This document shows, one piece after another, positions 34,559-59,852 of a DNA stretch of 64,000 nt. The position numbers were made by a program, and so were the translations under genes. The notes beneath the pieces are model-generated. The model did not search any database and was not told where the DNA came from. It worked only from the letters and a program-made list of their open reading frames with translations. Source of the stretch: an uncultured bacterium (GTDB lineage: Bacteria > Chloroflexota > UBA5177 > JANWHV01). Position 1 is the stretch's first letter. Each line of letters opens with the position of its first letter. The DNA lies in contig CAWHAE010000012.1 in assembly GCA_963827235.1 (NCBI GenBank), positions 1,120,001 to 1,184,000 on the forward strand, given 5' to 3'.

Positions 34559-34587
34559 AGTATGGGCCGGTTCCACCATGCTGTCAA
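34559..34587 (-). promoter_or_regulatory. Shared promoter TTGACA-N17-CATACT (copy 1)
   Basis: Minus strand TTGACA gcatggtggaaccggcc CATACT, preceded by GTTAGATATTTGATCGTAAAG. Confidence 0.75.
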
Positions 34588-34706
34588 CTTTACGATCAAA
34601 TATCTAACCCTGTGCAAGGCGTCGCGCGACTTCCTCGCGGTCTAAAGGGTGAGTGATATCAGGAAGACGCAAATGATATGCGAGCAGGCGGCGGGCACCA
34701 CGCCTG

Positions 34707-35363
34707 TCACGCAAGCGGCCGCACGAAGTCGACCGTCGCCCACAGGCAGCACGAGCTACCTCCGACCACGCACAAATGCCAGATAGCATGTGCTTCAAAC
34801 ACGCCGGGCCGCGGCCACGGGCGATCGAGCAGGAAGATCAGGGCTCCAATCGTATACACGACGCCGCCAGCCACGAACCACGCGACGCTCGCGGGCGGCA
34901 GGGCTCGAATGATGGCCGGCAGGGCGGCGAGCGCCACCCACCCCATGGCGACGTACAGCCCGGTGGAGAGCCAGACAGGTCCGTGCAGCCACCACACCTT
35001 GAGTACCAGCCCGACCAGAGCGATGCCCCAAACCGTGCCAAGCAGACCCCAGCGCCAGCCTTGCTGCAGCTCGACAAGACACACAGGCGTGTAGGTCCCG
35101 GCAATGAAGACGAACACCAGGACGCAGTCGAGTCGCAGGAGCCGCTCCATGCCCGCGTGCGAGATGTGGAGCGCATGATAGAGGGTACTCGCCACATAGG
35201 AGGCGAGCTGGCTCGTGCCGTAGATGCCCAGGCCGACCAGCGCCCAGCAGCTACCGGTCCGGCTACCGAGCCATAGGAGCAGGATGAGCGCGGCAACGGA
35301 CAACACGCTCCCAATGAGGTGGGTAATAGCGTTGGCCGGCTCTCGAAGCGAGCTCATCTTCAC
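34707..35363 (-). CDS. Hemolysin III / PAQR family membrane protein (TrhA-like)
   Basis: REPANAITH, STLYH, FIAGTYTP, YVAMGW, HAIWHLCV. Confidence 0.92.
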   Translation of the reverse strand: MKMSSLREPANAITHLIGSVLSVAALILLLWLGSRTGSCWALVGLGIYGTSQLASYVASTLYHALHISHAGMERLLRLDCVLVFVFIAGTYTPVCLVELQQGWRWGLLGTVWGIALVGLVLKVWWLHGPVWLSTGLYVAMGWVALAALPAIIRALPPASVAWFVAGGVVYTIGALIFLLDRPWPRPGVFEAHAIWHLCVVGGSSCCLWATVDFVRPLA

Positions 35364-35591
35364 CGCCCCTGGCCCCAGTTTGGCCGTGCACTATCGAAGC
35401 ACATGAAACAGCATGAGCTCGGCCGGCGGCATACGTCAAGAGACGCACCGCGACCCAGTGCGGAGGCGATTTCAACCGAGCCTTACCTCGCGTTGCCTGC
35501 CGGTCCGGCTACTGCATGCCCGGCATTGCGCCGCCCATCCTGAGCACAGTCAGGGCGCGCTGCGGCATCGGCTCGACCAAATCCGGGCACA

Positions 35592-35620
35592 AAGGAGGAG
35601 ATTCCCGTAGGAACCTCCTT
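35592..35620 (-). terminator. Hairpin downstream of csp
   Basis: AAGGAGG...CCTCCTT stem. Confidence 0.45.
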
Positions 35621-35664
35621 CTCTTGTCTACCCGTCGCTAGACTGCGGAAGTCTGAAGCAACGG

Positions 35665-35877
35665 CTAGCGGGCGACCTTGCGGACATTCACGGCCCGGTT
35701 GCCCCGGCCTCGGCTATCCGGCTCAGAGTCGTACTCTACGACATCATCGCGGCGCAGCTCGTCGAACGTAACGCCCACGAGAGCCGACGTGTGGAAGAAG
35801 AGGTCTTCTCCACCCTGCTCCTGCTTGATAAAACCAAAACCCCGGTCGGTGACCCGCGCGATTGTACCTTCTGCCAC
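35665..35877 (-). CDS. Cold-shock domain protein
   Basis: RNP1 RGFGFI and RNP2 LFFH; 70 aa. Confidence 0.92.
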   Translation of the reverse strand: MAEGTIARVTDRGFGFIKQEQGGEDLFFHTSALVGVTFDELRRDDVVEYDSEPDSRGRGNRAVNVRKVAR

Positions 35878-36334
35878 AACGTGCTCTTTCTGCCGTGCGA
35901 GGAGGATCTGTGAGAGGTCTGGCCCAGCGCCAAACAGTCGGGAGGCTCCTGTGGTGACGTCTCACTATACCATGTTTGGCCGAATAACGGTTTGGCGTGC
36001 CGTCGAAGTCGTAGAACATGGACCTTCAAGATCGAATCACGCACCGTCCCCACAGGGCGCCGAGTCGAGGCGACCGACCGGCATGGAGGAACTATACTCT
36101 GGTTACAAGTGCGGAAGTCCAGGTATGCTTGAGCTTGAACGTGTGAAGATGTTCAAAGCAAAGCCGGGCGGCAGCCCCCGTCGTCCCCAGCGACATCATC
36201 CTTACATCCATTGATGGCCGTGCCGGCTTGTGCGTCCGAATCACGTGAGGGCAAGGGGAGCAGCGCAGGCGACTGCGGACCCCGTAACGAAACGAGTGGC
36301 TTTGATGGCTTTGCTAGTGGAGACTGCGCCGAAC

Positions 36335-37045
36335 ATGGTCCTGCCGCCGCCAGGCGCGTGGGTATCGGATGGCCGGCCGGTGTCCGTGTTGATTGTCGAC
36401 GATCAGGCGCTGATGGGAGCGGGCCTGCGTTCCATTCTGCAGTCAAGCCCGGACATACACGTAGTCGGCGGAGCTCAGACCGGGCCTGACGCATTAATAC
36501 AGGCGGTTGCACTCAAACCGATGGTCGTTCTCCTGGATACCAGAGCGCCCCAGGCCGGCCGCATGGAAGCCATCCGCGGGTTGAAAGCCCAGCATGCGAT
36601 GGGGGCGATCATCATGATGTCGAGGCGCGACGATGGGTCCGGCATGCTCGACGCGCTACAGGCAGGTGCCAGCGCTTATCTCCTGCACGACTGCAGTCGA
36701 GAGCTACTTCTGCATACGATCGCGGCTGTTGCCAACGGAGGAGCGCTTGTCCAGGCATCATCGTTCCGCGGCAGCCATCTGATGCGCTTCGCCGGTGCCG
36801 GCCGTCAGCCAACCGGCGGTAAGCGCAGCGATCGTCCGGGCCTCGCAACCGAGCCGCTGACCAGCCGCGAAGAAGCCATTCTGCGCCTGGTGGCAGATGG
36901 AACGACCAACCGGGGCATCGCCGACGTCCTGTGTTTCGCCGAGGTTACGATCAAGAAGCACGTGCAAACCATCATCGGTAAGCTGAGCGCGTCCGACAGG
37001 ACACATGCCGCCGTGATCGCCGTGCGGGCGGGACTGATCGACTGA
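36335..37045 (+). CDS. NarL/LuxR-family response regulator (receiver Lys replaced by His)
   Basis: VLIVDD, VLLD, GASAYLLHD; HTH LTSREEAILRLVADG.TNRGIA...TIKKHVQTIIGKL...DRT.A. Start uncertain. Confidence 0.85.
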   Translation: MVLPPPGAWVSDGRPVSVLIVDDQALMGAGLRSILQSSPDIHVVGGAQTGPDALIQAVALKPMVVLLDTRAPQAGRMEAIRGLKAQHAMGAIIMMSRRDDGSGMLDALQAGASAYLLHDCSRELLLHTIAAVANGGALVQASSFRGSHLMRFAGAGRQPTGGKRSDRPGLATEPLTSREEAILRLVADGTTNRGIADVLCFAEVTIKKHVQTIIGKLSASDRTHAAVIAVRAGLID

Positions 37046-37361: not shown

Positions 37362-37679
37362 ATGTACACCGAGCAGGCCCTTACCTGTCGCGACTGTGGC
37401 AGGCAATTTGCGTTCACGGCCGGCGAGCAGGAGTTCTACGCCTCACGCGGCCTCACCAATGCCCCCAGCCGTTGCCCCGATTGCCGGGCCGCCCGCAAGA
37501 GTGGCGGCAGCGGTGGCCGTGCCTCCGGCGGAAGCTACGACGATCGCGCTCCTCGCGAGATGCATGAAGCGCGCTGCGACTCGTGCGGTGGAGTAGCCCG
37601 CGTGCCTTTCGTGCCGCGTGGCGACAAGCCCGTGTACTGCAGCGATTGCTTCAACCGCTCTCGCACCAGCCGGTACTGA
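37362..37679 (+). CDS. Zinc-ribbon domain protein with CxxC-x17-CxxC domain
   Basis: LTCRDCG..F.FTAGEQEFY...PSRCPDCR; REMHEARCDSCG...VPFVP..DKPVYCSDCF. Confidence 0.92.
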   Translation: MYTEQALTCRDCGRQFAFTAGEQEFYASRGLTNAPSRCPDCRAARKSGGSGGRASGGSYDDRAPREMHEARCDSCGGVARVPFVPRGDKPVYCSDCFNRSRTSRY

Positions 37680-37909
37680 ACCGCCCGCTGCGCCGGAGGC
37701 TCGAAATCCCTGCAAGGGATGATGCCCGGCGCATGAGTCGTCCCAGACATTGAGGATGACGGCAAGCAAAAGGCCTTCCGCGAAAGCATCGGAGTTCTCG
37801 CAAGGAACAGGGGTGTGTCGCGGAAGGTCTTTCTTTTGAAATGGCCAAACTCATAGCTCCCGCGCGCACCGGTCGCGTGCTCCGTCGATAGAGCTTCTTC
37901 GTGGAGTAT

Positions 37910-37937
37910 TCGACATTCGGGCCGACCTGCCCATAGT
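37910..37937 (+). promoter_or_regulatory. Degenerate copy of shared promoter (TCGACA-N16-CATAGT)
   Basis: GAGCTTCTT lies 10 bp before the -35, exactly as upstream of the second SPFH copy. Confidence 0.5.
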
Positions 37938-38026: not shown

Positions 38027-39046
38027 ATGGGAGTAGAAATCGCCCTGGCCATCGTGGCAGTACTGTTTGTGACGTTGCTTGCAAGGACGATTCGCATCAT
38101 ACCGCAGGCGCGCGTCGGTGTCGTGCAACGCCTTGGGGCCTTTCACAGTGCCTCCGAAAGCGGGCTGATCGTGGTACTGCCGTTCATCGACAAGATGCTG
38201 CCGCTGCTGGACATGCGCGAGCAGGTGGTCAACTTCCCGCCGCAACCGGTAATTACGTCGGACAACGTGACCATCAACGTCACGACCGTGGTCTACTATC
38301 AGATTCTCAACGCGAAGGACGCGAGCTATCAGGTCGCCAACTTGCTGCAGGCGATGGAGCAGATCGCGCAGACCACGTTGCGGAACGTGATGGGCAGCCT
38401 GTCGCTGGACCGGAGCTTGACCAGTCGCGACGAGGTCAATTCCCAGCTGCGCCTCGTGCTCGACGAAGTGACCGAGAAGTGGGGCGTGCGGATCACGCGC
38501 GTGGAGCTCAAGGATATCAGCCCGCCCAAGGACATCCAGCTGGCGATGGAAAAGCAGATGCAGGCGGAGCGGAACAAGCGGGCCACGATCCTGACCGCGG
38601 AAGGCGAGGCGCAGGCCGCGATCTTGCGCGCGGACGGCGCACAGAAAGCCCTGGTGATTGCCAGCGAAGGCCAGCGACAGGCGGCGATCTTGCGCGCTCA
38701 GGGAGATGCCCAGGCCCTGCTCACCGTGCAGAAGGCGCAGGCGGAAGCCGTGCACATGGTGTTCGAGGCCGTCAACTCCTCGGGTGCCACTCCGGAGGCG
38801 ATGCAGTACCAGTACATGCAGATGCTACCGAAGCTGGCCGACAGTCCGGCGAACAAGGTGTTTATCGTGCCGGCGGACATGGCAGGGCTGGCGGGGCTAG
38901 CCGGACAGGCACTGCATGAGGGACATACGCCAGCCTTCGCCGCCGGTGCACCCGAGGCGCCGGCCGAGACCGAGGACGGGCAAGGGCTGCCGCGGTTGGT
39001 TGCCGGGGCCGATGCACAGGCGCCCGGCGCAAGCACGGCGGTGTGA
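38027..39046 (+). CDS. SPFH/Band 7 (stomatin/QmcA-like) protein, copy A
   Basis: N-terminal TM, DMREQV..FPPQPVIT.DNV, TTLRNV.G, EKWGVRITRVELKDI.PP, MEKQMQAERNKRA.IL.AEG. Confidence 0.95.
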   Translation: MGVEIALAIVAVLFVTLLARTIRIIPQARVGVVQRLGAFHSASESGLIVVLPFIDKMLPLLDMREQVVNFPPQPVITSDNVTINVTTVVYYQILNAKDASYQVANLLQAMEQIAQTTLRNVMGSLSLDRSLTSRDEVNSQLRLVLDEVTEKWGVRITRVELKDISPPKDIQLAMEKQMQAERNKRATILTAEGEAQAAILRADGAQKALVIASEGQRQAAILRAQGDAQALLTVQKAQAEAVHMVFEAVNSSGATPEAMQYQYMQMLPKLADSPANKVFIVPADMAGLAGLAGQALHEGHTPAFAAGAPEAPAETEDGQGLPRLVAGADAQAPGASTAV

Positions 39047-39203
39047 TTCGGCACCTGTAGTCTCGCGTTGTCTGGGCGCACCCGTGGCCCGAATGCACTG
39101 CTCGCGGACCAGTCCCACCGGCATTGTCCAGATGAGCTTCATGTCTAGCCGCGCTGCCCAACCAGCGGCCCGGCCAATAGCCGCAGTCTATTGAGTCTAT
39201 GTC

Positions 39204-39232
39204 TTGACACGTTTATTGAACCCGCTCATACT
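39204..39232 (+). promoter_or_regulatory. Shared promoter TTGACA-N17-CATACT (copy 2)
   Basis: TTGACA cgtttattgaacccgct CATACT. Confidence 0.75.
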
Positions 39233-39361
39233 GCAGACACCGCCTCTCGGCTCTCGCGCCGGTGCGCTGGCGAAGCGTGGAGAACGCAACGCGGTGACGC
39301 TCCGTGAGCAAGGCACGAGCCACGCCGAAGCGGACGCGCTGCAGTCGCAAGGAGGCCGAAC

Positions 39362-39754
39362 ATGGTGCAACAGCATGCGGGCGCTGTCCAGCCTCTCGCG
39401 GCCGGACAGGGGATCCCTCGCGCGCAATGGCCCAGATTCTTCGAACACATCAGTAGAGAGTATGGAGGAGAGCAGGCGACGCTCGAGCTGGCCGATATGG
39501 AATCGGGCGACTCCGTTCTAGCCACGTACCCACGTTTTCGCAGCATCGCGGCGGACGAGGACTACAACCAGAACCGTATCGCGATAGTTCTGGAGAATGC
39601 GTCCGGTGACCCTACGATGCACACGCTGTCGAAAGCAACTCAGGTACGGTTTGCCGATGCGCTGCGATCCACGCTTGCTACGCTGACCATGGCCACCATG
39701 TCCGGTACGGTCGCCGTGCTGCACTTCGCTCACCCGCCATCGCCCGGGCAGTGA
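39362..39754 (+). CDS. DUF5335-like protein
   Basis: RBS AAGGAGG; IPRAQWPRFFEHISREY...ATLE pattern typical of DUF5335. Confidence 0.65.
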   Translation: MVQQHAGAVQPLAAGQGIPRAQWPRFFEHISREYGGEQATLELADMESGDSVLATYPRFRSIAADEDYNQNRIAIVLENASGDPTMHTLSKATQVRFADALRSTLATLTMATMSGTVAVLHFAHPPSPGQ

Positions 39755-39896: not shown

Positions 39897-39923
39897 GTAG
39901 CAGTCTCGCTATGAGAGTGCTAA
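39897..39923. promoter_or_regulatory. CIRCE element (HrcA operator)
   Basis: GTAGCAGTC-N9-GAGTGCTAA versus consensus TTAGCACTC-N9-GAGTGCTAA, upstream of groES. Confidence 0.88.
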
Positions 39924-40167: not shown

Positions 40168-40470
40168 ATGTCCACACGGATCGCGTTGACTATCCGCCCC
40201 TTGAATGACCATGTCGTGATCAGGCCGGCGAACAAGGAAGAAGTGAGCGCGGCAGGCGTCATCCTGCCGGACACCGCCAAGGAGAAGCCCCAGAAGGGCA
40301 CCATCGTGGCAGCCGGGCCGGGTCGCATTCTCGACAGCGGCACCCGCCAGGCGCTCGAGGTCTCGGTTGGCGAGGAAGTTCTCTACGCAAAGTATGCCGG
40401 CACCGAGGTGAAGCTCGAGGGTGAAGACTATCTGATCCTGTCCGAGAAGGACATTCTGGCCGTAGTCTGA
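40168..40470 (+). CDS. groES: Co-chaperonin GroES
   Basis: IRPLND.VVI, GVILPDTAKEKPQKG, YAKYAGTEVK...LILSEKDILAV. Confidence 0.97.
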   Translation: MSTRIALTIRPLNDHVVIRPANKEEVSAAGVILPDTAKEKPQKGTIVAAGPGRILDSGTRQALEVSVGEEVLYAKYAGTEVKLEGEDYLILSEKDILAVV

Positions 40471-40532: not shown

Positions 40533-42166
<1,634 letters not shown>

Positions 42167-43727: not shown

Positions 43728-43985
43728 TCAGGGCGCGCGATTGCCGACGGCATCACCGCCGGAGCGCGCGTCCACCACGGCGGTAGAGGCGCCAAACGCA
43801 TCGTAGTGAGCCTCCGACCAAACAGGGTTGCGCCGGCTGGCCAACATCGGCGTGCCGTCGTCTGCCTGTTGTCCGGACGGTACGACGCGGACCGTAACCT
43901 CTTGCCCCGACGGGGCCAGATACACCGGTGAGCTTGTACTGCTGTACGCGGCGAGCCCGCTGGCCGACTCAATTTCATTCCTCAC
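43728..43985 (-). CDS. Hypothetical protein
   Basis: GGAGG RBS before GTG; lies downstream of a shared promoter copy. Confidence 0.4.
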   Translation of the reverse strand: MRNEIESASGLAAYSSTSSPVYLAPSGQEVTVRVVPSGQQADDGTPMLASRRNPVWSEAHYDAFGASTAVVDARSGGDAVGNRAP

Positions 43986-44241
43986 GCCGATAGTCCTCCC
44001 ACGCCGGCGACCGGGCAGCGGCGTCGCTAAAGATCTCCATCCAGCCCGTGCCAGGCTTCGGAGAGAAGCCTGACCTGCCCACATAGTCTTCCCGCCGGCA
44101 ACGCGTCGCCTTGCCCGCAGGATTGGCGAGCCCGCACCTACCAATCACCCTTGTCCGTGTGCAAGGCACGGTGTCTCTTGCTCGAAGGCCGCGCGCAGCC
44201 GTGGTAAGCAAAAGCACCTGGTACGACGTGGGTTCCTATGA

Positions 44242-44270
44242 AGTATGAGCGTGTAGCGGCGCAGTGTCAA
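44242..44270 (-). promoter_or_regulatory. Shared promoter TTGACA-N17-CATACT (copy 3)
   Basis: Minus strand TATAGCTATAGGATATTTCAAGAATAG TTGACA ctgcgccgctacacgct CATACT. Confidence 0.78.
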
Positions 44271-44401
44271 CTATTCTTGAAATATCCTATAGCTATACTC
44301 TGCAGAATACGCCATAACCCACTCGTATATCGTGAGGATAGTAATAACATAGTCATCCCAGCACGACCCCTGCAGAGCGGTGGATCGCTCGCGACACTAC
44401 G

Positions 44402-45586
44402 CTATCCGAGACCGCGGTCCTCGTCGACGGGCGCAGCCGGCCATCTGAGTACGAGTTCCGATCCGCGATGACGCCTCATTGCGATAGGGCGGGCGATGGC
44501 GATGAGAAGCAGGATAGTACCTCGCGTGGCAAAGTCCATGACCCGCATTGCCCCATCGGCAAGCGCGCAGGTCGTGCCGGGGATGCCCGTCGAATGGACG
44601 AGGAGCAGGACGAGAGCGCTGTCAGTCACGCCGAAACCCGATGGAGCGACAATGACGAGCGCGCCGAGGGCGGTGGCGAGCGCCGCCGATCCCAGAACTG
44701 CCATCGGGCTGGGCATGGTCATGCTCAAGTTCGCCAATATCACCCACAGCGCCATCACTCCGGCAAGCCAGGCACCGGCGCTGTATGGGATCAGACTGAG
44801 AACCTGTACGACCCGTGGCTTGATCGTAGTCCTGTCACCCTTGCGCGTTCCGGTGCCAAGTAGCCGTCCGCCCAGCCGCGCCAACCGGTTTTCGCGAAAG
44901 CGCGACCGGCGAACATGATGCCGCACGAGCTGCAGGAGTGGGCTCTCGCCGCCGGTGCCGAGCACGACGTAGAAGAACAGGATCATGCCAGTCGCCAGGC
45001 TAGCCAGGAGCAGGGCCACGGCAGAGGCATCGTGGTTGCCAAGGATTGGTAGAGGCTCGCGCATCCGTGCTTGCCGGAGGAGATACCAGCCGAGTGGAGT
45101 CCAAACCAGGGTGCCGCAGAACGCCAAAGCATTGGCGATCAGCAATATGGCAGCAGCCGTCCCGGCAACCACACCCCGGCGACGCAACACCAGCACCGCC
45201 CCGAGTGTGGATCCGGCAATGGTGCCGATGGCGCCAGCGAGGCTCGTGCTGAGGTAGATCCCCAACGCGGCTACCGCCGGCGTACGCACACCGAACTGTC
45301 GCATGAGGCGCTGCCACATCCGGCCAAGCAAGGCAACCGCGGCCACGTCGCAGATCCCGGCCAGAACCATCGCTTGCAGACTTAGCCTGTGAAGGGTCGC
45401 CAATGCATCCAGAGCTTTCGCCGGCACACCCCAATGGGCAGCGGCAAGACTGCACACGGCCAGCAAGAGGAAAGAAACCGCGCAATAACCGCCCCAGTGC
45501 CGGCTGTGAGGGTGCACCCCGGGAGGAGTCCGCATGTGCTCGACGACAGGCGGATGACTCAGTATCGCCACATACTTCTCCAGCAC
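44402..45586 (-). CDS. LPG-synthase TM / flippase-like membrane protein, paralog A
   Basis: Multi-TM; WQRLMRQFG, GAVLVLRRRGV, APSGFGVTD, MRVMDF motifs typical of LPG_synthase_TM (UPF0104). Confidence 0.75.
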   Translation of the reverse strand: MLEKYVAILSHPPVVEHMRTPPGVHPHSRHWGGYCAVSFLLLAVCSLAAAHWGVPAKALDALATLHRLSLQAMVLAGICDVAAVALLGRMWQRLMRQFGVRTPAVAALGIYLSTSLAGAIGTIAGSTLGAVLVLRRRGVVAGTAAAILLIANALAFCGTLVWTPLGWYLLRQARMREPLPILGNHDASAVALLLASLATGMILFFYVVLGTGGESPLLQLVRHHVRRSRFRENRLARLGGRLLGTGTRKGDRTTIKPRVVQVLSLIPYSAGAWLAGVMALWVILANLSMTMPSPMAVLGSAALATALGALVIVAPSGFGVTDSALVLLLVHSTGIPGTTCALADGAMRVMDFATRGTILLLIAIARPIAMRRHRGSELVLRWPAAPVDEDRGLG

Positions 45587-45715
45587 GGGGCAGTTGATCG
45601 GTCAGGAACCGCCCTGTCACGGACGCGCATTCGTCACCACGATCGCGATGGCTCCCGAGCACTCGATGATTGAACTGAGCTTGCAGTGCCCCGCGTCGTA
45701 CCGGCGTTCTTCTCT

Positions 45716-45745
45716 AGCATGGGCCGCCCAGGGGCCTAGCGTCAA
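45716..45745 (-). promoter_or_regulatory. Variant of shared promoter (TTGACG-N18-CATGCT)
   Basis: Preceded by AGGATATTTCGTAGATAG, nearly identical to the element before copy 3. Confidence 0.6.
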
Positions 45746-45807
45746 CTATCTACGAAATATCCTCATTCTTTACAGCAGATTACATGCCGTGGTGCAGCAT
45801 TATACTG

Positions 45808-48442: not shown

Positions 48443-48694
48443 CTGAAGGGATCCCCCCCGATGGCGCCCGGCGTGCTCACCGCCGTGCCGCCCATGAGCG
48501 CCAGTTGCCGTGCGGAGCATGGCAGGCTGGCGGTGCAAAGCCGTTGCGCTGCAGGTTAGTGCGCCGGGAGGTTGAGAAGTAGCTTGTTGCGCATGCGGCT
48601 CGTGAGAACGTGTCGCCATCGCGCGCGGAGTGGGCTCGATGGGACAGCACCCTCACCGGCCCAAGACATCTAGATTCGAGCACAGGAGGTGGTC

Positions 48695-49747
48695 ATGGCA
48701 GGCATACTTGGACGTATCTCGATGCTCTTCAAGGCAAAGATGAACTCGACGCTCGACGCCGCCGAGAATCCCAACGAAGCGCTCGACCTGTCGTACGAGC
48801 AGCAGGTGGAACAGCTGCAGAAGGTGCGTCGGGGCATCGCCGACGTGGTGACCGCCAAGTCGCACCTACAGCTCCAGCTCGCCCATCTAGGGGAGGATTC
48901 TGCCAGATACGACTCCCAGGCTCGCCAAGCGCTGGCTGCCAACCGCGAGGACCTGGCACGCCTGGCCCTGTCTCGCAAGGCAGAGCAGGCACAACAGGTG
49001 CAGAGCTTGCAGTCCCAGGTGCAAACCCTGGAGACCCAGCAACAGCAGCTCCAGGACGGCGAACAACGACTGGCGGCCAAGATCGAGGCCTTTCGCACGA
49101 GGAAAGAGACCATCAAGGCGCAGTACACCGCGGCCCAGGCACAGGTGCGAATCGGCGAGGCAAGCTCCGGCATCTCCGAGGAGATGGCCGATGTCAATGC
49201 CGCCCTGCAGCGGGCCGAGGACAAGACCCAGACCATGCAGGCTCGAGCCAATGCCATTGGGGAGCTGACGGCCGCGGGCACCTTGCCCGACCTGTTGACC
49301 GCCAGCGGGGACGACGTGCAGGCCCAGCTCGACCAGATCTCGGCCGGCAGCAGCGTCGATGCAGAGCTTGCCGCACTGAAGAGCCAGCTTGGCGCGGCGA
49401 CCCCGCCTGCCGCGCAGCTCGGGGAGCACGTGGACGCTCCCGGGATGATCGTGCGTGTGCAGGGCAGTGGGCAGTACCGCCTGGCGCAGCCCGACATCGA
49501 TACCCTGCACGGACTCGATCACCAGCTTGCCGAGGCCGTTCACGCCAATGACGCCCCGGGCGTACACAAACTGCTTGGCCAGATGATCACGCTTGTGCAG
49601 ACGCGCGGGACCAGCGCCGGCGCCGATGAGCTGGTGTCGTCGGCTATCATACTGCCGCCCGACACGCTCACCATCGAGGAGGTACAGGCCCTGCTTCGCG
49701 ACGACAGCCTGCTGGACAGCGCCGCGCCCGCCGCATCGTTGGCGTAA
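48695..49747 (+). CDS. pspA: PspA/IM30 protein fused to a C-terminal PspA-associated (PspAA-like) domain
   Basis: RBS AGGAGG; LDAAENP.E.LD.SYE, ANREDLARLAL.RK, VDAELAALK; then MIVRVQGSGQY...IILPPDTLTIEEV. Confidence 0.88.
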   Translation: MAGILGRISMLFKAKMNSTLDAAENPNEALDLSYEQQVEQLQKVRRGIADVVTAKSHLQLQLAHLGEDSARYDSQARQALAANREDLARLALSRKAEQAQQVQSLQSQVQTLETQQQQLQDGEQRLAAKIEAFRTRKETIKAQYTAAQAQVRIGEASSGISEEMADVNAALQRAEDKTQTMQARANAIGELTAAGTLPDLLTASGDDVQAQLDQISAGSSVDAELAALKSQLGAATPPAAQLGEHVDAPGMIVRVQGSGQYRLAQPDIDTLHGLDHQLAEAVHANDAPGVHKLLGQMITLVQTRGTSAGADELVSSAIILPPDTLTIEEVQALLRDDSLLDSAAPAASLA

Positions 49748-50087
49748 GGCCGTTGCCGGCCTCCAGGCCCACTCTGACGTCTCGGCGAGCGCATCGCGGC
49801 CGGCGGTGACGATGGGCACGTGACGAACAAGGACTGCAACCTCAACCCGCCGCGGTGCACTCGCTCTGCGAGGACGTGGCCGGCCATTCGAGGGTATTGC
49901 GTGCGGCACGACACGATCGAGCGCCTCCGCAGCCTGTGTGCCTATCCACGATCGCGGATCGGGCGGCGCACGAACGTTCGTTAACGCCGCGGGCGCGAGC
50001 CGTCCGCGCAACGGATGGCGGCTACCGGCAGGTCAAAGCTGCCTGGATGCGAGGGTTTCAGCCATCTTGGGGGAGCGAGAAAACGAC

Positions 50088-51428
50088 ATGATGCATGCGC
50101 ACCGAAGCCCAGAGCAACTGGGAATTCGCCTGAGCAGCTACCCGAGCCCGTCCAGGGCCGGCGGCCACAGTGTCGCCTACGTCGGCACCTATCCGCCGCG
50201 CGCCTGTGGCATTGCCACCTTTACCCGAGACTTGAGCGAGGCTATCGGTCAAAGCCAGCAGCATATCAGCAGCGCCATCATGGCCATCACCGACGAGGAT
50301 ACGCACGACGCCTATCCCAATCTGGTCCACTGGACGATCGACCAGCACGACCCGCACAGCTGGCAGCGTGCCGCGGAGCAGCTCAACAGGGCTCCCGTCG
50401 ATCTCGTCTGCATTCAGCATGAGTTCGGCATCTACGGCCGTTTCGATCCAGGCGGGCGCTTTACCGACTACCTGGCCGGCTTTCTGCAGCGCATCGCGAA
50501 GCCCGTGGTCACGACCCTGCATACCGTGCTGCCGCAGCCTCCCCCGGACCTTCGACAGGCTATTCGCCTGTTGCACGATCACAGCGCGGCTGTTGTCACG
50601 ATGGTGAACCAGGCTCGCCGGATTCTCACCCAGGACTACGGCCTGACCGCCGGTCGCCTTCACACCATCCCGCACGGTGTGCCGGAGGCCCCATGGGTCC
50701 CCCCGGAGCGTGCCAAGAAGTTATTGGGGCTTGATGGGCACACGATCCTCAGCACCTTCGGCTTGCTCAGCCAGGGCAAAGGCATCGAATATGCGATTCG
50801 CGCCTTGCCCTCGGTGCTGCAGCAGCATCCGGACGTGCTCTACCTCGTGCTTGGCGCGACCCATCCGGAGATCAGGCGCTCGGAAGGAGAGCGCTATCGC
50901 CACATGCTGCTTGATCTGGTCGAGTCGCTGCATCTCCGGCAGTCGGTGCGATTCGTCAACCAATACCTCACTCAGCAGGAGGTAGTCCGCTACCTCCAGG
51001 CCACGGACATCTACCTCACGCCCTATACTCAGCGCAATCAAATCACCAGCGGCACCCTGGCCTACGCGCTCGGCTGCGGCAAGGTCGCGGTCTCCACCCC
51101 GTATCTCTATGCCGTGGAAGCCCTGTCCGAAGGCAGGGGCCTGCTGGCCGAGTTTGGCAATCCCGAGTCGTTTGCCGCCTGTATCAACCGGTTACTGGAG
51201 CACGAATCCGAGCGCTGGCAGTGTGAGCGTCGCGCGCTGGTCTACGGCATGCGCATGGGCTGGTCGGAAGTAGGCGCTCAGTATGCCAGGCTCTTTGGCC
51301 AGGTGGCAGGCTGGTCCGGTGCGTCGATACCGATGGGACTGCTCGACCCTGGTGAGCGGACAACCTCCCCCTTTGACGCACCGCGCCTCACACGAAGACC
51401 TGGCGTCCCGGTAACCACCGTCGAATGA
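50088..51428 (+). CDS. GT4 glycosyltransferase, paralog B
   Basis: Same motifs as paralog A (YPPRACGIATFTRDL, QHEFG, QITSGTLAYALGCGK). Confidence 0.92.
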   Translation: MMHAHRSPEQLGIRLSSYPSPSRAGGHSVAYVGTYPPRACGIATFTRDLSEAIGQSQQHISSAIMAITDEDTHDAYPNLVHWTIDQHDPHSWQRAAEQLNRAPVDLVCIQHEFGIYGRFDPGGRFTDYLAGFLQRIAKPVVTTLHTVLPQPPPDLRQAIRLLHDHSAAVVTMVNQARRILTQDYGLTAGRLHTIPHGVPEAPWVPPERAKKLLGLDGHTILSTFGLLSQGKGIEYAIRALPSVLQQHPDVLYLVLGATHPEIRRSEGERYRHMLLDLVESLHLRQSVRFVNQYLTQQEVVRYLQATDIYLTPYTQRNQITSGTLAYALGCGKVAVSTPYLYAVEALSEGRGLLAEFGNPESFAACINRLLEHESERWQCERRALVYGMRMGWSEVGAQYARLFGQVAGWSGASIPMGLLDPGERTTSPFDAPRLTRRPGVPVTTVE

Positions 51429-54796: not shown

Positions 54797-55297
54797 CTAC
54801 TTGCTGGAGGCGGTCTTCTCAGGGATCTTCGGCCCCTGGATTGCGCCGGCGCTCACCTTGATGGTGTGAGCGCGTGCGTGCTGCGCCTTGGCCAGGCGAA
54901 GGGTCAGCATGCCCCAATCATACGTGGCCTGGGCTCCTTCGGCATCTACCGCCATCGGCAAGCTGAAGGCCTGCTCAAAGTGACCCGCCCCAATACCATT
55001 CCAGATCTGCTCGGCGTTCTCGAAGGACTGACTGGCGCGTTCGCCCTTCAGATAGACCGTGTCGCCCTGGACAGTGACCTGTACCTTGTCCGGGTCGACC
55101 CCCGGCAGCGAGAACTGCGCTATATAGCCGTCAGCGGTCTCATAGAGGTTGGCCGACACCGACAGGTTGGCCCCGACCGTGCCGAGCAACGTGCGTGGGC
55201 TGATGAAGCTATCAGCCACCAGACGGTCCATCGCATCCCGAAGCGAGACCGCGTCCTGCAATGGCTGCCAAACGGCACGAATTGTCATGGTCGTCAT
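54797..55297 (-). CDS. Hsp20/alpha-crystallin small heat-shock protein
   Basis: SLRDAMDRL, NLYET, LPGVDPDKVQVTV, LKGER, F...FSLP..VD...A.Y..G.LTL.L.K, TIKV. Confidence 0.93.
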   Translation of the reverse strand: MTTMTIRAVWQPLQDAVSLRDAMDRLVADSFISPRTLLGTVGANLSVSANLYETADGYIAQFSLPGVDPDKVQVTVQGDTVYLKGERASQSFENAEQIWNGIGAGHFEQAFSLPMAVDAEGAQATYDWGMLTLRLAKAQHARAHTIKVSAGAIQGPKIPEKTASSK

Positions 55298-55378
55298 TCT
55301 TTCCCAACCGTGCGCCCTCGCACGATTGAACCGTACTGCGGGTTCCTTTGTGTGGGAGCATTGCGCCCCCATAAGGTA

Positions 55379-55432: not shown

Positions 55433-55723
55433 TATTGAACCCCGGCACGGCTATGGGCTTGTCTGGTGCAGCGCCGAGCTCGCACAGACTTCCCACTGCG
55501 TGGCGACCGAGTTAGCAGTCATGTATGCAGAATGCTAGCCTTGGTATTCCAGCCCTCGTGAGAGCGTCCTCCCATGGTTCCCGCGGCGGTTCAGCCTCGC
55601 GGGCTGAGCTGCGTCCATTCGCCAGAGGCGGCAGAAGGCACTTTACTATGAATATATTCCAATAAAACAGCACCGGATTGCGCTTGCAGAACGTCAAATT
55701 CATAGAGGATGGTTAGTCTATAC

Positions 55724-55752
55724 TTGACACTGGCCCTTTGGGAGCCCATACT
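55724..55752 (+). promoter_or_regulatory. Shared promoter TTGACA-N17-CATACT (copy 5)
   Basis: ATAGAGGATGGTTAGTCTATAC TTGACA ctggccctttgggagcc CATACT. Confidence 0.78.
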
Positions 55753-55763
55753 GTGGAGTGACG

Positions 55764-55960: not shown

Positions 55961-57043
55961 GTGAAACGCATGCCTGCGACGCAACTGGAAGGAAGCTACC
56001 TGGTGGGCCTACGGCCTTTGGCACTTCGTCTTGGTTGCGGTGTCGTTCTGGTTGGGCTACTGCTAATCGCGCTGCATACCATCGGATGGAGCCTTGCGCT
56101 GCGTGCGACGATGCGCGTTGGTCCCACGACCTTGGTGCTCGCGCTCGCCATGACTGTACTCTCGATGCTGATCAGCGGCGTGGTCTGGACGCGCGTGCTA
56201 GGCTGCCTCGGCCACCGCGCCGCGGTACAGGTGGGCATGACGCTCTACGCGGGGACCGGCCTTGCCGCGTATCTTGCCTCGGGTGTTGGAGCCGCGGGCG
56301 AGTGCATCGTGCTTCTGCGGCGACATGGCGTCTGTGCCGGCCGCGCCGTGCTGCTGCTGGTTCTTGCCAGCTTGGTCGGCTTCCTTGGCTGCGTGGTCTG
56401 GGTGCCATGCGGCCTGGTGTTGCTGGCCGCTCCCGCGGTGACCCGCGCCCTGCCTGCGCTGGGGACACATGGGCCGCTGGTCGTCATGATTGCGACGGCA
56501 GTCTGTGGGGTGGGGGCGCTGATCACGCTCGCGCTGGTCACGCTGTGCCCTCGTCTGTGCGCACGCTGGCGCGTGGCCCGTCTCCTCGTCGACCCATCTG
56601 GCCCGCCGTTGCGGCTGTCATTGCCCTATCTTCTCGGCCTGATTCCCGTCGCAGCGGTCGGTTGGGTGGTAGGGGCCGTGCCCCTGTGGGTGCTGCTGCG
56701 GACTGCCGCGCCCAGCGCTGGTGTGTCCCTGCTGGCGGCGATCGGCGTGCAGTCGGTGGCAGCGGTGATTGGGAGCGTGACCTTCTTCCTGCCCAACGGG
56801 CTGGGGGCGCGGGATGGGGCGATTGTGGGCCTGCTTGTCACCGTAGCCGGCGTGCCCCTTCCTGCAGCGGCAGCCGTGGCGGTCCTGCTACGCCTCAGCG
56901 ATCCCGTGGCCAAGGCGCTCATCCTGCTGGTTCTCGCCGGACTGCGAAGAGTTCCTCGCCTCTCGCTTTCGTCGCCACGGCTATGGCGCGCGGGCAATGC
57001 CGCTGCGCGCGCCGTGCTTAGCCGGCCGGTGTTAGCACCATAG
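55961..57043 (+). CDS. LPG-synthase TM / flippase-like membrane protein, paralog B
   Basis: WTRVLGCLG, VLLRRHGV, LPNGLGARD, LLRLSD; multi-TM. Confidence 0.78.
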   Translation: MKRMPATQLEGSYLVGLRPLALRLGCGVVLVGLLLIALHTIGWSLALRATMRVGPTTLVLALAMTVLSMLISGVVWTRVLGCLGHRAAVQVGMTLYAGTGLAAYLASGVGAAGECIVLLRRHGVCAGRAVLLLVLASLVGFLGCVVWVPCGLVLLAAPAVTRALPALGTHGPLVVMIATAVCGVGALITLALVTLCPRLCARWRVARLLVDPSGPPLRLSLPYLLGLIPVAAVGWVVGAVPLWVLLRTAAPSAGVSLLAAIGVQSVAAVIGSVTFFLPNGLGARDGAIVGLLVTVAGVPLPAAAAVAVLLRLSDPVAKALILLVLAGLRRVPRLSLSSPRLWRAGNAAARAVLSRPVLAP

Positions 57044-57206
57044 GCCGGGTATGGCAGGCTTACAGGCTGACTGCGGCGTGACAACGTCCCCTGGCGTGTC
57101 ATGTGTCACGGTATTGAGCACGGCCGGCCCGTGCATCGGCGCGCGCACAGACTCCTCAATCTAGACGCAGCCGTCCCGTTATATTGAGAGATAAATCAGC
57201 TTATAC

Positions 57207-57235
57207 TTGACATATTCGGGCCCAGAGCGCATACT
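57207..57235 (+). promoter_or_regulatory. Shared promoter TTGACA-N17-CATACT (copy 6)
   Basis: GAGATAAATCAGCTTATAC TTGACA tattcgggcccagagcg CATACT. Confidence 0.78.
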
Positions 57236-57568
57236 CAAGGTGGGTGAGCAGCTCCTCCAGCGCTCCTCGCCGCAATGAGCACCGTGAGGGTGCGCGGGAG
57301 CTGTCCGGCGCCCTTCACTAGCCCGCCTCATTCCAGCTCGTGGTGCGGTGACGGAGCGGGCCACGCAGGCTCCCGGTTTCCACCGGGCGCATTGATCGGC
57401 CAGCGACGTGCACACCAACCGGCCCCCAGCAATGCAGTGTCTCGTCATGCCCAGCAGGGACGGGCCTCATCGGGACAAGCCGGGGCAACCCAGAGAGGAC
57501 GAAACGCAGCCGCGTTCACACGGAGGCAAGTCCCAAGGCGGCATACAGCGTAGAGAGAACGGTACAGC

Positions 57569-57961
57569 ATGAACGAGCGCGTCTTGATTCGCGGGGACCG
57601 CGAGTACCCGAACATGGACGATGTGGAGCACTATGTGGCCGCGCTGGCCCCCGACACAATCGTCGTGGACGGCGAAGCGCACGGTCTGGACCAGCTGGTA
57701 GGGCAGGCGGCGCAGCGGCGCGGACTGGCCGTGGAGCGCTTTCGCACTGACTGGAGCAGCGGCACACGCGCCGGCAACGCCTCCAGCGACGAGATGGTGG
57801 CGCGCGCCGACCGCGTCGTCGTTTTCCGTGCCGGCGGCTCATCCGGTACTCTGCACACGATCCGGGAGGCGGTTCGCGCAGGCAAGCCCACACTCGTGTT
57901 TTCCGCGGAGTGGGGTCCTTACCCGGAAGGGATCGCCGGCGTAGAATACTCCGGTGCCTGA
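57569..57961 (+). CDS. SLOG superfamily (YspA/DUF2493-like) protein
   Basis: RVLIRGDR, IVVDGEAHGLD, ERFRTDW, EMVARADRVVVF...SGT..TI..A..AGKP. Confidence 0.7.
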   Translation: MNERVLIRGDREYPNMDDVEHYVAALAPDTIVVDGEAHGLDQLVGQAAQRRGLAVERFRTDWSSGTRAGNASSDEMVARADRVVVFRAGGSSGTLHTIREAVRAGKPTLVFSAEWGPYPEGIAGVEYSGA

Positions 57962-58093
57962 CCGATCACGCTCGTGCTGTGCAGCCAACGGTGACCATGC
58001 GGATCCGCGGGCTGCACAGCACGAGCATGGCCTCCTGCAGTCGCCGTGGAAAGCCGTGCCTGCCGAGCACGCTCCGCATGCCGGAGAGCTGCG

Positions 58094-58366
58094 CTATGCT
58101 TCGAGGCGACGCTTCAGCCCATCAGCCAGCTCGAGCAGGTGTGTCTCGTATTGCTCGACGCCGGCGAGGTACTGCTCGACACCTTTCATGGCACTCTCCA
58201 GTGTCGCCCCGAACTCCTCGTACTTGGCGTCCCGCCAGACGCCGCTCTGGCTCTGCCAGTGTTCCCGCATGCTGAAGAACTCATCTCGAATCGTGCGGTC
58301 AAAGTTCACGAGGTGGCACCGGAGCTCGATCACGGAGCTCACGTCGGCCGCTATGCTGCTGCTCAT
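58094..58366 (-). CDS. WXG100-like helical-hairpin protein (W-x-D variant)
   Basis: 90 aa, two amphipathic helices around central GVWRDAKYEEF; RBS GAGG. Confidence 0.6.
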   Translation of the reverse strand: MSSSIAADVSSVIELRCHLVNFDRTIRDEFFSMREHWQSQSGVWRDAKYEEFGATLESAMKGVEQYLAGVEQYETHLLELADGLKRRLEA

Positions 58367-58554
58367 CTGATACCTCGCACTGCACTACCGACAGACCGAC
58401 ACGGCGGCCGCTCAGGTGACACATCCCTGCCTGGAGCAGGCCTGGCTGGGAGACCATGCAACATCCCTTCGCCGCGGTGACACAGAGACCGCCGGTGAGG
58501 TGCCACCGCGGATAAGCCGCCGAATATGACCTCCCAGGCGGCCCATACCTGCGG

Positions 58555-59550
58555 TTACCCGACGGGGGCGGCTACGACGCGGGTAGCTCCACCACCATTC
58601 CTGGCCTGGCTGGAGGCATCGACTCCGTGCTCAGCCAGGCTCATGCTGCCGTTTGCGACCTGGGCCATCGACCCCGCGAGCCCGGCCAGGCCCGCCATGT
58701 CCGCCGGCACGATAAACACCTTGTTCGCCGGATTCTCGGCCAGCTTCGGTAGCATCTGCATGTACTGGTACTGCATCGCCTCCGGAGTGGCACCCGAGGA
58801 GTTGACGGCCTCGAACACCATGTGCACGGCTTCCGCCTGCGCCTTCTGCACGGTGAGCAGGGCCTGGGCATCTCCCTGAGCGCGCAAGATCGCCGCCTGT
58901 CGCTGGCCTTCGCTGGCAATCACCAGGGCTTTCTGTGCGCCGTCCGCCCGCAAGATCGCCGCCTGCGCCTCGCCTTCCGCGGTCAGGATCGTGGCCCGCT
59001 TGTTCCGCTCCGCCTGCATCTGCTTTTCCATCGCCAGCTGGATGTCCTTGGGCGGGCTGATATCCTTGAGCTCCACGCGCGTGATCCGCACGCCCCACTT
59101 CTCGGTCACTTCGTCGAGCACGAGGCGCAGCTGGGAATTGACCTCGTCGCGACTGGTCAAACTCCGGTCCAGCGACAGGCTGCCCATCACGTTCCGCAAC
59201 GTCGTTTGGGCGATCTGCTCCATCGCCTGCAGCAAGTTGGCGACCTGGTAGCTCGCGTCCTTCGCATCGTGGATCTGATAGTAGACCACCGTGGTCACAT
59301 TGATCGTCACATTGTCCGCGGTGATCACCGGCTGCGGTGGGAAGTTGACCACCTGCTCGCGCATGTCCAGCAACGGCAGCATCTTGTCGATGAAGGGCAG
59401 TACCACGATCAGTCCGCTCTCGGAGGCACTGTGAAAGGCCCCAAGGCGTTGCACGACACCGATCCGCGCTTGCGGGATGATACGGAACGTTCGGGCCAAC
59501 AAGCCCACAAACACGACAACGACGATGGCCAGGGCGATTTCTACTCCCAT
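58555..59550 (-). CDS. SPFH/Band 7 protein, copy B
   Basis: Nearly identical to copy A over about 290 aa; different C-terminal tail. Confidence 0.95.
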   Translation of the reverse strand: MGVEIALAIVVVVFVGLLARTFRIIPQARIGVVQRLGAFHSASESGLIVVLPFIDKMLPLLDMREQVVNFPPQPVITADNVTINVTTVVYYQIHDAKDASYQVANLLQAMEQIAQTTLRNVMGSLSLDRSLTSRDEVNSQLRLVLDEVTEKWGVRITRVELKDISPPKDIQLAMEKQMQAERNKRATILTAEGEAQAAILRADGAQKALVIASEGQRQAAILRAQGDAQALLTVQKAQAEAVHMVFEAVNSSGATPEAMQYQYMQMLPKLAENPANKVFIVPADMAGLAGLAGSMAQVANGSMSLAEHGVDASSQARNGGGATRVVAAPVG

Positions 59551-59647
59551 GGCACCAGTCCTTTCCTGACATGCGCAGGCAGCCGGCGCTCGGCCGCGTA
59601 GCGCGTCGCGCACAGCACGACACTCGGCAACTCGGCCGCCTGCTGCC

Positions 59648-59676
59648 AGTATGGGCGGGTTGGACCCTCGTGTCAA
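59648..59676 (-). promoter_or_regulatory. Shared promoter TTGACA-N17-CATACT (copy 7)
   Basis: Minus strand GAGCTTCTTAGCGATATAT TTGACA cgagggtccaacccgcc CATACT. Confidence 0.78.
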
Positions 59677-59852
59677 ATATATCGCTAAGAAGCTCCGTCG
59701 ATACCCCGCACGATCTGCGACAATGGGGATAACAGATTCAGCAAATTCACAGCACTGCACTCTTTGAACGGTGGCCGGTGAGACCGCACTGTCCACCGGC
59801 ACGTTCTCGAACCGCCGGTAGCTGTAGCTCGACGTGCGCGCCACGCTCGCGA

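Follow-up and report, generated by a model that had tools for sequence, protein, structure and literature searches.

How is transcription controlled in a block of stress genes from an uncultured Chloroflexota bacterium, and do the promoter-like repeats between these genes define a regulon of their own or are they simply the promoters that the genome uses throughout? The question is raised by a 64,000-nucleotide stretch of assembly GCA_963827235.1 (contig CAWHAE010000012.1, positions 1,120,001 to 1,184,000), which is referred to here as the window and corresponds to C12:1120001-1184000 of a 7.98 Mb assembly of 21 contigs (G000). The element under study is TTGACA-N17-CATACT, preceded by an AT-rich upstream element. 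Our analyses point to a distinct promoter class that precedes stress genes, is packed into two genomic islands and recurs in a second species of the genus. To our knowledge, next to nothing has been learned about how soil Chloroflexota, which are mostly uncultured, control their transcription, and full-text literature searches found no description of the motif.

A recurrent composite promoter in the window

The initial annotation of the window reported seven exact copies of the motif and two variants. All seven exact copies lie where they were placed, on the same strands, and a one-mismatch search of the window found no sites of this form beyond them. Chance had been estimated to give far less than one copy of the motif per window, and 100 dinucleotide-preserving shuffles agree, with a mean of 0.00 and a maximum of 0 exact copies. 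As described, GC followed by C, T or G stands directly before the -10 in 7/7 exact sites, and the ~27 bp 5' of the -35 can be aligned among the copies, the second (39204) being offset by 1 bp. Both variants exist; the one at 45.7 kb is a clear member of the class, whereas the one at 37.9 kb is weak, was found only when 2 mismatches and a 16-bp spacer were allowed, and is of uncertain membership.

The window was scanned, with filters off, using R1, a sequence-only covariance model built from a 26-site alignment (A3). The seven exact sites score 32.7-47.2 bits. No copy had been seen by eye in the first 34 kb, and there the model tops out at 6.7 bits (position 32237) and 4.9 bits (8145). Genes were called with our own codon-usage model and named by Pfam. 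By these calls all nine sites are intergenic, as had been claimed, and each faces a same-strand gene 89-544 nt downstream. The sites, with R1 scores and predicted targets, are:

34551-34619 (-): composite promoter (proximal element, TTGACA, N14, GCCCATACT, start region), exact core 34559-34587, 34.1 bits; before a DUF2171-like open reading frame (ORF), 33622-34014, and a GT4 glycosyltransferase gene, 31915-33363.
37887-37937 (+): weak variant TCGACA-N16-CATAGT with an upstream GATAGAG element, 8.2 bits (E 0.15); before an SPFH/Band_7 gene, 38027-39046.
39172-39240 (+): composite promoter with the upstream element offset by 1 bp, exact core 39204-39232, 38.8 bits; before a DUF5335 gene, 39362-39754, with a conserved ~130-nt leader between.
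44234-44302 (-): composite promoter, exact core 44242-44270, 45.0 bits, distal block at ~44325-44352; before small ORFs without a Pfam family, 43728-44217.
45709-45769 (-): variant with an 18-bp spacer (TTGACG ... GCCCATGCT), 27.4 bits (E 1.3e-7); before an LPG_synthase_TM gene, 44402-45586.
48382-48450 (+): composite promoter, exact core 48414-48442, 47.2 bits, the best in the window; before a PspA_IM30+PspAA fusion gene, 48695-49747, and a GT4 gene, 50067-51428.
55692-55760 (+): composite promoter, exact core 55724-55752, 43.6 bits; before an LPG_synthase_TM gene, 55970-57043 (the congener G001 has an orthologous site with the same downstream gene).
57175-57243 (+): composite promoter with no distal block visible, exact core 57207-57235, 32.7 bits; before a SLOG (YAcAr) gene, 57569-57961.
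59640-59708 (-): composite promoter, exact core 59648-59676, 39.9 bits; before an SPFH/Band_7 gene, 58555-59550, and a 90-aa ORF without a Pfam family.

Leaving the ORF named as an SPFH remnant aside, Pfam agrees with the gene names first assigned to these targets except in three cases. The DUF2171 match at 33625-34014 falls below threshold (20.7 bits against a cut-off of 25), the ORFs named as flippases match LPG_synthase_TM, and the ORF named WXG100 (58097-58366) has no Pfam match.

Distribution in the genome

The exact motif occurs 15 times in the whole genome: seven times in the window, once at C12:1203146, six times on C17 (74-141 kb) and once at C9:476558. Fourteen of these copies, all with the upstream element, lie in two islands, C12:1154-1203 kb and C17:74-150 kb. 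The DNA upstream of the C9 copy is GC-rich, and this copy is probably due to chance, as base composition alone predicts ~0.16 exact copies. When the genome was scanned with a position matrix derived from these 14 copies and spanning -32 to +37 around the -35, 27 sites reached 32.8 bits or more, 26 of them within the islands; the reversed, non-complemented genome contains none even at 18 bits or above. The sole match outside the islands, C16:600058, carries GACAATAAT and is probably an ordinary promoter. With R1, 27 matches were obtained at E <=0.1, 27/27 of them in the two islands. Membership of the class thus comes to 27-29 sites when the weak variant at 37.9 kb is included. The suggestion that the motif is confined to the stress block of the window does not hold, given that the C12 island extends ~19 kb beyond the window end and a larger second island is present on C17. 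It is unusual for an entire regulon to be packed physically into two islands. The presence of 27 sites here versus 8 in the congener suggests a recent expansion.

Strongly AT-rich DNA at G000:C8:401000-417000 gave many spurious matches to the matrix for the upstream element. This region may be foreign DNA.

Distinction from housekeeping promoters

A genome-wide scan had been named beforehand as an analysis that could overturn the proposal, and it shows that the motif is not the housekeeping promoter. CATACT is the commonest hexamer 17 bp after TTGACA (15 observed versus 0.16 expected). The hexamers enriched at this spacing are TATAAT, TAGGAT, TAGTAT, TAGAGT, TATAGT, TATACT, TATGAT and CATACT. 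The ordinary class, TTGACA-N17-TAnnnT, comprises 149 sites on 15 contigs, with upstream DNA of background (GC-rich) composition. Only 2/149 of these sites have ATAG at the position of the upstream element, and both are in the islands. At -15/-14 the ordinary sites have TG in 45/149 cases and GC in 23/149.

The CATACT class shares a TTGACA -35, a 17-bp spacer, A-11 and T-7 with housekeeping promoters. It departs from them at -12, where the 26 aligned sites have C in 23 cases, T in 2 and G in 1. Because the CATACT sites are restricted to the islands and carry the upstream element, whereas the TAnnnT sites are dispersed and lack it, we conclude that the CATACT class is not the housekeeping one. 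The initial proposal is thus supported in that these promoters form a distinct class, have an upstream element in common and precede stress genes.

Promoter structure

The complete unit is ~110 bp long and consists of a distal block, a proximal 27-bp element, TTGACA, a 17-bp spacer, an extended -10 and a purine-rich start region. The extended -10 reads G-15 C-14 n C-12 A-11 T-10 A-9 C-8 T-7 and begins N14 after TTGACA. TTGAC, G-15, A-11, T-10 and T-7 are invariant in 26/26 aligned sites, C-14 is present in at least 90%, and the sixth base of the -35 is A in 20/26. C-13 is frequent (10/14 exact island sites). A purine-rich nnGGAGGA lies 3' of CATACT, about where the start is expected.

The mean column identity of the 26-site alignment is only 63%. 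Information content is 0.03-0.77 bits at each of the 14 spacer positions that separate the -35 from G-15, compared with 1.07-2.08 bits in the fixed boxes of the core (-35 hexamer, G-15, C-14 and -10 hexamer). As the spacer is unconserved while the core is fixed, the similarity appears to be kept by selection on particular positions and not by recent copying, in line with the earlier view that the repeats reflect conserved function instead of simple duplication. In total, ~35 specific positions are constrained while spacers and flanks are randomised.

The proximal element (27 bp, consensus TATAGnTAGAGGATATTTCAnnCTATnG) abuts the -35, with a 1-base displacement in five sites. Its ends are the self-complementary CTATAG, 22 bp apart, and the element therefore scores on both strands. 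The information profile of the 26 sites places the distal, AT-rich block at -82 to -55 from the -35, with conserved T-80, T-79, A-75, T-74, A-72, T-68, T-65, A-63 and ATA at -58 to -56; further upstream, information is at background level. On the opposite strand the distal block resembles the proximal element (GTGAGGATA...), and its centre is palindromic in many copies (type ATGAG-N3-4-CTCAT). It is absent at a few sites, e.g., 57207. AT boxes occur at -80, -58, -26 and -4, and their spacings of 22, 32 and 22 bp place them on one face of the helix. Measured from the predicted start, the upstream array extends as far as about -117.

The 27-bp element is also found without the core, mostly in the islands, and several such copies end in TGnTAnnnT-like boxes. 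One at L007:543-569 (C17:141643-141669) ends in TGCTATAAT and lies directly upstream of an island gene for an extracytoplasmic function (ECF) sigma factor. Another, at C12:1188231 (TGTTATAAT), precedes a 94-aa ORF, and a third, at C17:118076, precedes a Kelch-repeat gene.

Conservation in relatives

In a comparison with 31 relatives, enrichment of exact cores was limited to the genus of the window. R1 was run on all 21 genomes of the class, several of them incomplete, with 150 first-look candidates scored per genome. Matches were found in G000 (27), its congener G001 (8), G003 (1) and G004 (1), and none in the remaining 17. The latter include G018, which has no match to the FliA/WhiG-type sigma factor L049 discussed below, although matches to other sigma factors and to zf_Tbcl proteins are present. 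The G003 and G004 matches consist of the core only and precede a fatty-acid desaturase gene, as in G000. In G001 both the proximal and the distal blocks are present, and the downstream genes (LPG_synthase_TM, FtsH, PRC-barrel followed by phosphoketolase, a Kelch-like gene and a methyltransferase) belong to the same families as those in G000. Thus, linkages between promoter and gene are conserved across species.

A strict composite pattern, GAGGAWATTTYA-N7-9-TTGAC-N15-GCCCAT, had no match in 185,579 species' genomes, although a pattern this narrow would miss diverged relatives. The one match in metagenome contigs, probably a chance occurrence, falls within a 247-aa ORF on an AT-rich contig. When the four PRC-barrel paralogues described below were searched for in genome contigs, pattern matches were obtained, none of which was confirmed by tblastn.

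Genes downstream of the promoters

Every site of the class faces a same-strand gene, mostly 60-340 nt downstream. The targets outside the window are:

C12, past the window: a PRC-barrel protein, a protein without a family and a fatty-acid desaturase.
C17: PRC-barrel proteins, BON then SPFH, Hsp20, a methyltransferase, PRC/DUF2171 then Usp, and a glycogen branching enzyme.
C17, further: DnaK-DnaJ-HspR, DUF2171, DUF5335, an ABC sugar importer with GH130, and several without a family.

Four PRC-barrel paralogues with 69-73% protein identity are encoded on C17, one of them heading a phosphoketolase-aldolase operon. Seven of the eight PRC-domain matches in the genome are in the islands, and the eighth is RimM. 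The island DnaK is one of three Hsp70 genes in the genome. The targets had been described as a membrane-stress regulon. They do include stress genes, but chaperones, Usp, BON, phosphoketolase, glycogen enzymes and a sugar importer make the set broader than membrane stress, and by its predicted functions it is a general-stress or dormancy set.

Genes for KaiC-like double-domain ATPases adjoin those for histidine kinases (GAF-HisKA and MerR-PAS-HK) and stand-alone receiver proteins in both islands. These modules may provide the signal input of the regulon:

L001:9972-12487, 13381-14932 and 17263-19388: KaiC-like modules.
L002:11-1597: KaiC-like module.
L004:3228-6704: KaiC-like module.

The ~110-bp element allows members of the regulon to be named from sequence alone, given its 27-29 copies, ~35 constrained positions and presence in a second species. 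Members named in this way include PspA, SPFH, PRC-barrel, DUF2171, DUF5335, BON, Usp and Hsp20 proteins, a second DnaK operon, glycogen enzymes, phosphoketolase and lipid-modifying enzymes. The element is also a direct bait for finding the regulator.

Comparison with known promoter classes

Stress regulons with a promoter class of their own are a known kind of system; the length and strictness of this element, its hybrid -10 and its packing into two islands stand out. In a dnaKp1 scaffold, the Escherichia coli heat-shock promoter read by sigma32 (RpoH) has the form CTTGAA-N14-CCCCATTTA, with C-12 paired, A-11 flipped and C present at -15/-14 (PMC10216364). The class resembles these promoters in having C-12 next to A-11, C-14, C-13, TTGA in the -35 and a similar geometry (PMC10216364), and, as in the sigma32 regulon, its targets include chaperones and FtsH-type proteases. 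Compared with the sigma32 form CCCCATnT, C-14, C-13, C-12, A-11 and T-10 agree, whereas the class has G and not C at -15, ACT and not nT after CAT, TTGACA and not CTTGAA, and a distance from -35 to CAT that is one base longer. In addition, no RpoH was identified by NCBIfam score (see below), and sigma32 promoters have no comparable sequence-specific upstream array.

Promoters of the sigma28 (FliA/WhiG) type are described as T(A/C)AA-N16-GCCGATAA, with a central CGA defining the -10 (PMC12871210), and T-7 is not conserved in them (PMC12784957). The GC extension of sigma28 promoters is present in the class (G-15 in 26/26 sites, C-14 in at least 90%), C-13, A-11, T-10 and A-9 are in register, the N16 geometry is shared, and a sigma factor of this family co-occurs with the promoter. 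Unlike sigma28 promoters, the class has C and not G at -12, so that CGA is lost, an invariant T-7, and stress targets rather than flagellar or developmental ones. Its -35 is not of the sigma28 type (T(A/C)AA or TCTAAAG), as TTGACA agrees at 2/4 positions in the N16 register. The sigma28 -10 is closer in register to the extended -10 of the class than is that of sigma32.

General-stress promoters of E. coli sigmaS (TCTATACTTAA) share ATACT at -11 to -7, a frequent C-13 and control of general-stress genes with the class (PMC3367168). Unlike them, the class has C and not T at -12 and GC and not nT at -15/-14, so that the sigmaS arrangement of TC at -14/-13 followed by TATACT is not present (-14 is C and -12 is C). 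Furthermore, none of the aligned G000 sigma factors has a lysine at the position of sigmaS K173.

In OmpR/PhoB-type arrays and at the AT-rich WhiB7 site, phased upstream sites abut the -35. The class is similar in that AT-rich boxes, phased with periods of ~11 and 22 bp, stand immediately 5' of the -35 and keep a fixed register to it. Unlike in those promoters, the -35 is a full consensus and is not replaced, and a second inverted or palindromic block is present ~55 bp upstream. With its C-12 and GC extension alongside T-7, the hybrid -10 is a naturally occurring case in which the part played by sigma regions 2.4 and 3.0 in setting promoter class can be tested.

Candidate sigma factors and regulators

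We identified 27 Sigma70_r2 loci in G000, of which 18 (17 with ORFs of at least 240 aa, plus the island ECF sigma factor) were scanned with NCBIfam models. These include a primary RpoD (L038), a long RpoD-like protein (L041), group-2 sigma factors (L039 and L040), a divergent one (L044), two of FliA/WhiG type (L049 and L050) and ECF sigma factors, including P0001. Neither an RpoH equivalog (best rpoH_proteo score 158.7 bits versus a cut-off of 323.1) nor an RpoS equivalog (289.9 versus 378.7 bits) was found among the 18. The wedge residues are WW, and not HW, in all five non-ECF sigma factors that were aligned, and the -35-reading helix TRERIRQ is canonical in L038, L039 and L040.

L041, which has an altered region 3.0, was rejected as the reader as it appears to have no counterpart in G001. 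L044 was also rejected, as its gene is located in a flagellar cluster (FliS, FlgN, FliD and flagellin) and has no G001 counterpart. This divergent 297-aa protein (G000:C10:901677-902567; L104:7830-12736) has WWITQQITR in region 2.4 and a shortened region 3, and G003 and G004 were the only genomes in which we saw counterparts (63-64% identity). L044 may serve as a flagellar sigma factor of an unusual type next to the FliA-type one.

Two genes in the window were considered as sources of an upstream-binding regulator because of their position:

36335-37045 (+): NarL/LuxR-type response regulator (Pfam Response_reg and GerE), a candidate by position only.
37362-37679 (+): zf_Tbcl treble-clef zinc protein; its family is multi-copy and occurs across the class, and this copy is the island one.

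The NarL-type regulator is unsupported, as it has many paralogues and its congener matches are 50-53% identical, are not beside sites and are of unclear orthology. The zf_Tbcl protein was rejected as a specific regulator, given that its family is multi-copy and present in 20/21 genomes of the class. An OmpR-type regulator gene, at C17:72170-72874 in G000, is located near the PRC-barrel/phosphoketolase site in both G000 and G001. This candidate, too, is unsupported, with many paralogues, best congener matches of 47-50% identity and unclear orthology; the G001 gene near the site is 41% identical and contains a stop codon. An HspR-like MerR protein, encoded at C17:117681-117956, and a MerR-PAS-kinase, encoded at C12:1201403-1202992, are further candidates by position, and neither gained support. 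The initial annotation had called for a dedicated alternative sigma factor or activator. The dedicated class is borne out, but no sigma factor or activator could be assigned to it, and five candidates found no support.

In at least six genomes of the class, zf_Tbcl genes are located 2-14 kb from a gene for an L040/L044-like group-2 sigma factor, which hints at a functional link, possibly an anti-sigma one. Examples are:

G016:C78:3092-6173: zf_Tbcl and sigma factor genes in proximity.
G015:C80:3244-6332: the same arrangement.
G008:C1:229414-231993: the same arrangement.

How the promoters may be read

The explanation that we favour, with doubt and conviction in about equal measure, is a lineage-specific, regulator-dependent promoter class whose ~29 transcription units, located in two islands, would make up a general-stress or dormancy regulon. 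RNA polymerase with a sigma70-type (group 1 or 2) sigma factor would read TTGACA, A-11 and T-7. Reading of this type is favoured because of the TTGACA, the 17-bp spacer, A-11 and the invariant T-7, which is unconserved in sigma28 promoters. The C-12 and the GC in place of TG at -15/-14 would make the core poor for the housekeeping mode used elsewhere in the genome. A stress-activated DNA-binding protein would occupy the distal and proximal elements and contact polymerase beside the -35, and initiation would depend on it. The fixed register, helical phasing and reach of the upstream array indicate a dedicated protein of this kind. A stress sigma factor that favours the GC/C-12 extension might cooperate with it, and the signal would probably enter via the KaiC-like, histidine-kinase and response-regulator modules of both islands.

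Several observations weigh against this explanation. G-15, C-14 and C-12 are so strictly conserved as to suggest that they are read as specific bases; if the -10 were simply weakened, there would be no reason to expect a single sequence to become fixed. The only group 1/2 sigma factors common to G000 and G001 are of the L038, L039 and L040 types. These retain residues equivalent to those by which E. coli sigma70 reads T-12 and TG, and thus do not explain the fixed G-15, C-14 and C-12; no sigma factor with altered residues for reading -12 or the extended -10 is common to the two genomes. No protein of the genome could be tied to the upstream elements, which could equally be repressor operators. 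Contamination of G000 is estimated at 9%. We infer that C17 and C12 belong to one organism from the shared motif and from G001 orthologues of sites in both islands, three of which sit together on its contig C11. Lastly, start codons were taken from our own codon-usage calls, so leader lengths are approximate.

More tentatively, the class may be read by a factor of novel specificity. This could be a hybrid sigma factor that combines sigma70-type reading of the -35, A-11 and T-7 with sigma28/sigma32-type reading of GC and C-12, or a new family of activator that binds the two-part array of distal palindrome and proximal element and is required for open complexes to form at C-12 promoters. Such a factor would be a master switch of the stress or dormancy response, fed by the KaiC-like kinase modules. 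It is improbable that the whole extended -10 is read directly by a dedicated alternative sigma factor to which the upstream elements are accessory. The best candidate would be L049 (G000:C8:309342-310124), a non-flagellar group-3 member of the FliA/WhiG family that scores 195.6 bits against a FliA_WhiG cut-off of 189.6. The in-register match of G-15, C-14, C-13, A-11, T-10 and A-9 to (-15)GCCGATAA(-8), in which GC is the sigma28 extended -10 (PMC12784957), argues for it, as do the compatibility of T(A/C)AA-N16-GCCGA with TTGA-N16-GCCCA (PMC12871210) and one class site that reads GCCGATACT. L049 is distributed like the promoter: the G001 counterpart is 77% identical and the G002 one 56%, the matches in G003 and G004 reach only 40% and are taken to be counterparts of L050, and the other 16 genomes of the class have none. 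The genes around it are not flagellar ones and are syntenic in G001, where canonical sigma28 promoters are not in excess (1 match versus 2 in the control). However, the central CGA of WhiG/FliA promoters is replaced by CCA in 23/26 sites and by CTA in 2, only 1 having CGA; the -35 is a perfect sigma70 TTGACA and not TAAA; and T-7 is invariant. Alignment with WhiG (6pfv) and FliA (6pmi) indicates that L049 retains the canonical DNA-reading segments YAVTRIRG...D and SESRVSQLH, and ordinary TAAA/GCCGATAA specificity is therefore expected. G000 has seven strict matches to canonical TAAA...GCCGATA, three of them with CTAAAG.

A little less improbable is that these are intrinsically active sigmaA promoters held by a repressor, with the distal palindrome and proximal element as operators, possibly looped across ~54 bp, and with stress releasing the repressor. 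A consensus -35 and a -10 that keeps A-11 and T-7 are consistent with this, the palindromic centre of many distal blocks is typical of dimeric repressors, coreless elements overlap TGnTAnnnT-like boxes (the TGCTATAAT and TGTTATAAT copies), and an HspR-like MerR repressor is encoded in the dnaK operon of the regulon. Both elements lie wholly upstream of the -35, however, which is unusual for repression in the absence of a downstream partner site, and a register fixed within 1 bp is more typical of activators. Nor did the 18.9-kb locus L005, which covers the C17 dnaK operon and its promoter, contain an HspR-associated inverted repeat (HAIR), which we take to be CTTGAGT-N7-ACTCAAG, even with 3 mismatches allowed. 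That the island ECF sigma factor P0001 (C17:141712-142641) is the cognate one seems very doubtful, even though its gene is 0.4 kb from the C17:141340 site and a 63%-identical G001 counterpart is ~1.3 kb from a divergent site pair. P0001 has regions 2 and 4 only and scores 66.1 versus 42.9 bits with the sigma70-ECF model, while the BldN-family model is below cut-off. Sigma factors of the ECF type have no region-1.2 pocket for reading T-7, and the boxes that they recognise are typically of the AAC/CGT type. Moreover, P0001's own gene has no class promoter upstream, and the G001 counterpart is preceded by coding-like DNA without the element, with no alignable footprint between G000 and G001. Least credible is an absence of common regulation, with the sites as leftovers of operon and promoter duplication or as a mobile promoter-bearing repeat. 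Several targets are indeed paralogous (the four PRC-barrel genes, and repeated SPFH, LPG_synthase_TM, DUF5335 and KaiC-like genes), and four promoters have a leader in common. Yet the motif is common to unrelated gene families, spacers and flanks are randomised around the fixed positions, sites persist with their gene linkages in a second species, and the strict pattern is absent from the species' genomes searched, with one probably chance match in metagenomes. Conservation along the whole unit, including spacer and ends, as in miniature inverted-repeat transposable elements or repetitive extragenic palindromes, was not observed, although no search aimed at terminal repeats or target-site duplications was made.

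Other regulatory features and neighbouring genes

Two inverted repeats resembling the controlling inverted repeat of chaperone expression (CIRCE), presumably TTAGCACTC-N9-GAGTGCTAA, were identified in the window:

39897-39923 (+): CIRCE-like repeat upstream of groES (40168-40470), 2 mismatches to the presumed consensus.
55512-55538 (+): second CIRCE-like repeat, 3 mismatches, upstream of hsp20 (54797-55297, minus strand; Hsp20 by Pfam match).

None of 100 shuffles (0/100) gave two or more matches. In the window the repeats occur only before groES and hsp20 and not at any of the nine class sites. Thus, the stress block is under more than one control system, and the new class seems to operate beside control of the classical HrcA type.

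The conserved ~130-nt leader, which starts with GCAGACACCGCC, is common to four class promoters and precedes two DUF5335 genes, one gene without a family and one fatty-acid desaturase gene:

Window 39233-39361: leader copy.
L001:15307-15640: leader copy.
L002:1780-1912: leader copy.
L006:7217-7342 (-): leader copy.

It could be a cis-regulatory RNA. The consensus fold is weak (-12.1 kcal/mol, with compensatory changes in 4/24 pairs by RNAalifold), and no Rfam family reached its gathering score in the 134.7 kb covered (the window and L003-L006, with L001, L002 and L007 left out).

The groEL gene beside groES may be frameshifted or mis-assembled. A Cpn60 match (profile positions 164-422 of 490) is located in ORF 41035-41997, and the 5' part must fall in an overlapping ORF in another frame, 40545-41939 (window 40545-41997). 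At the right end of the C12 island (L002:4399-8392, C12:1205791-1209787), the genome encodes a STAND NTPase-WD40 protein of 1083 aa and a TIR-STAND fragment, an architecture that looks defence-like.

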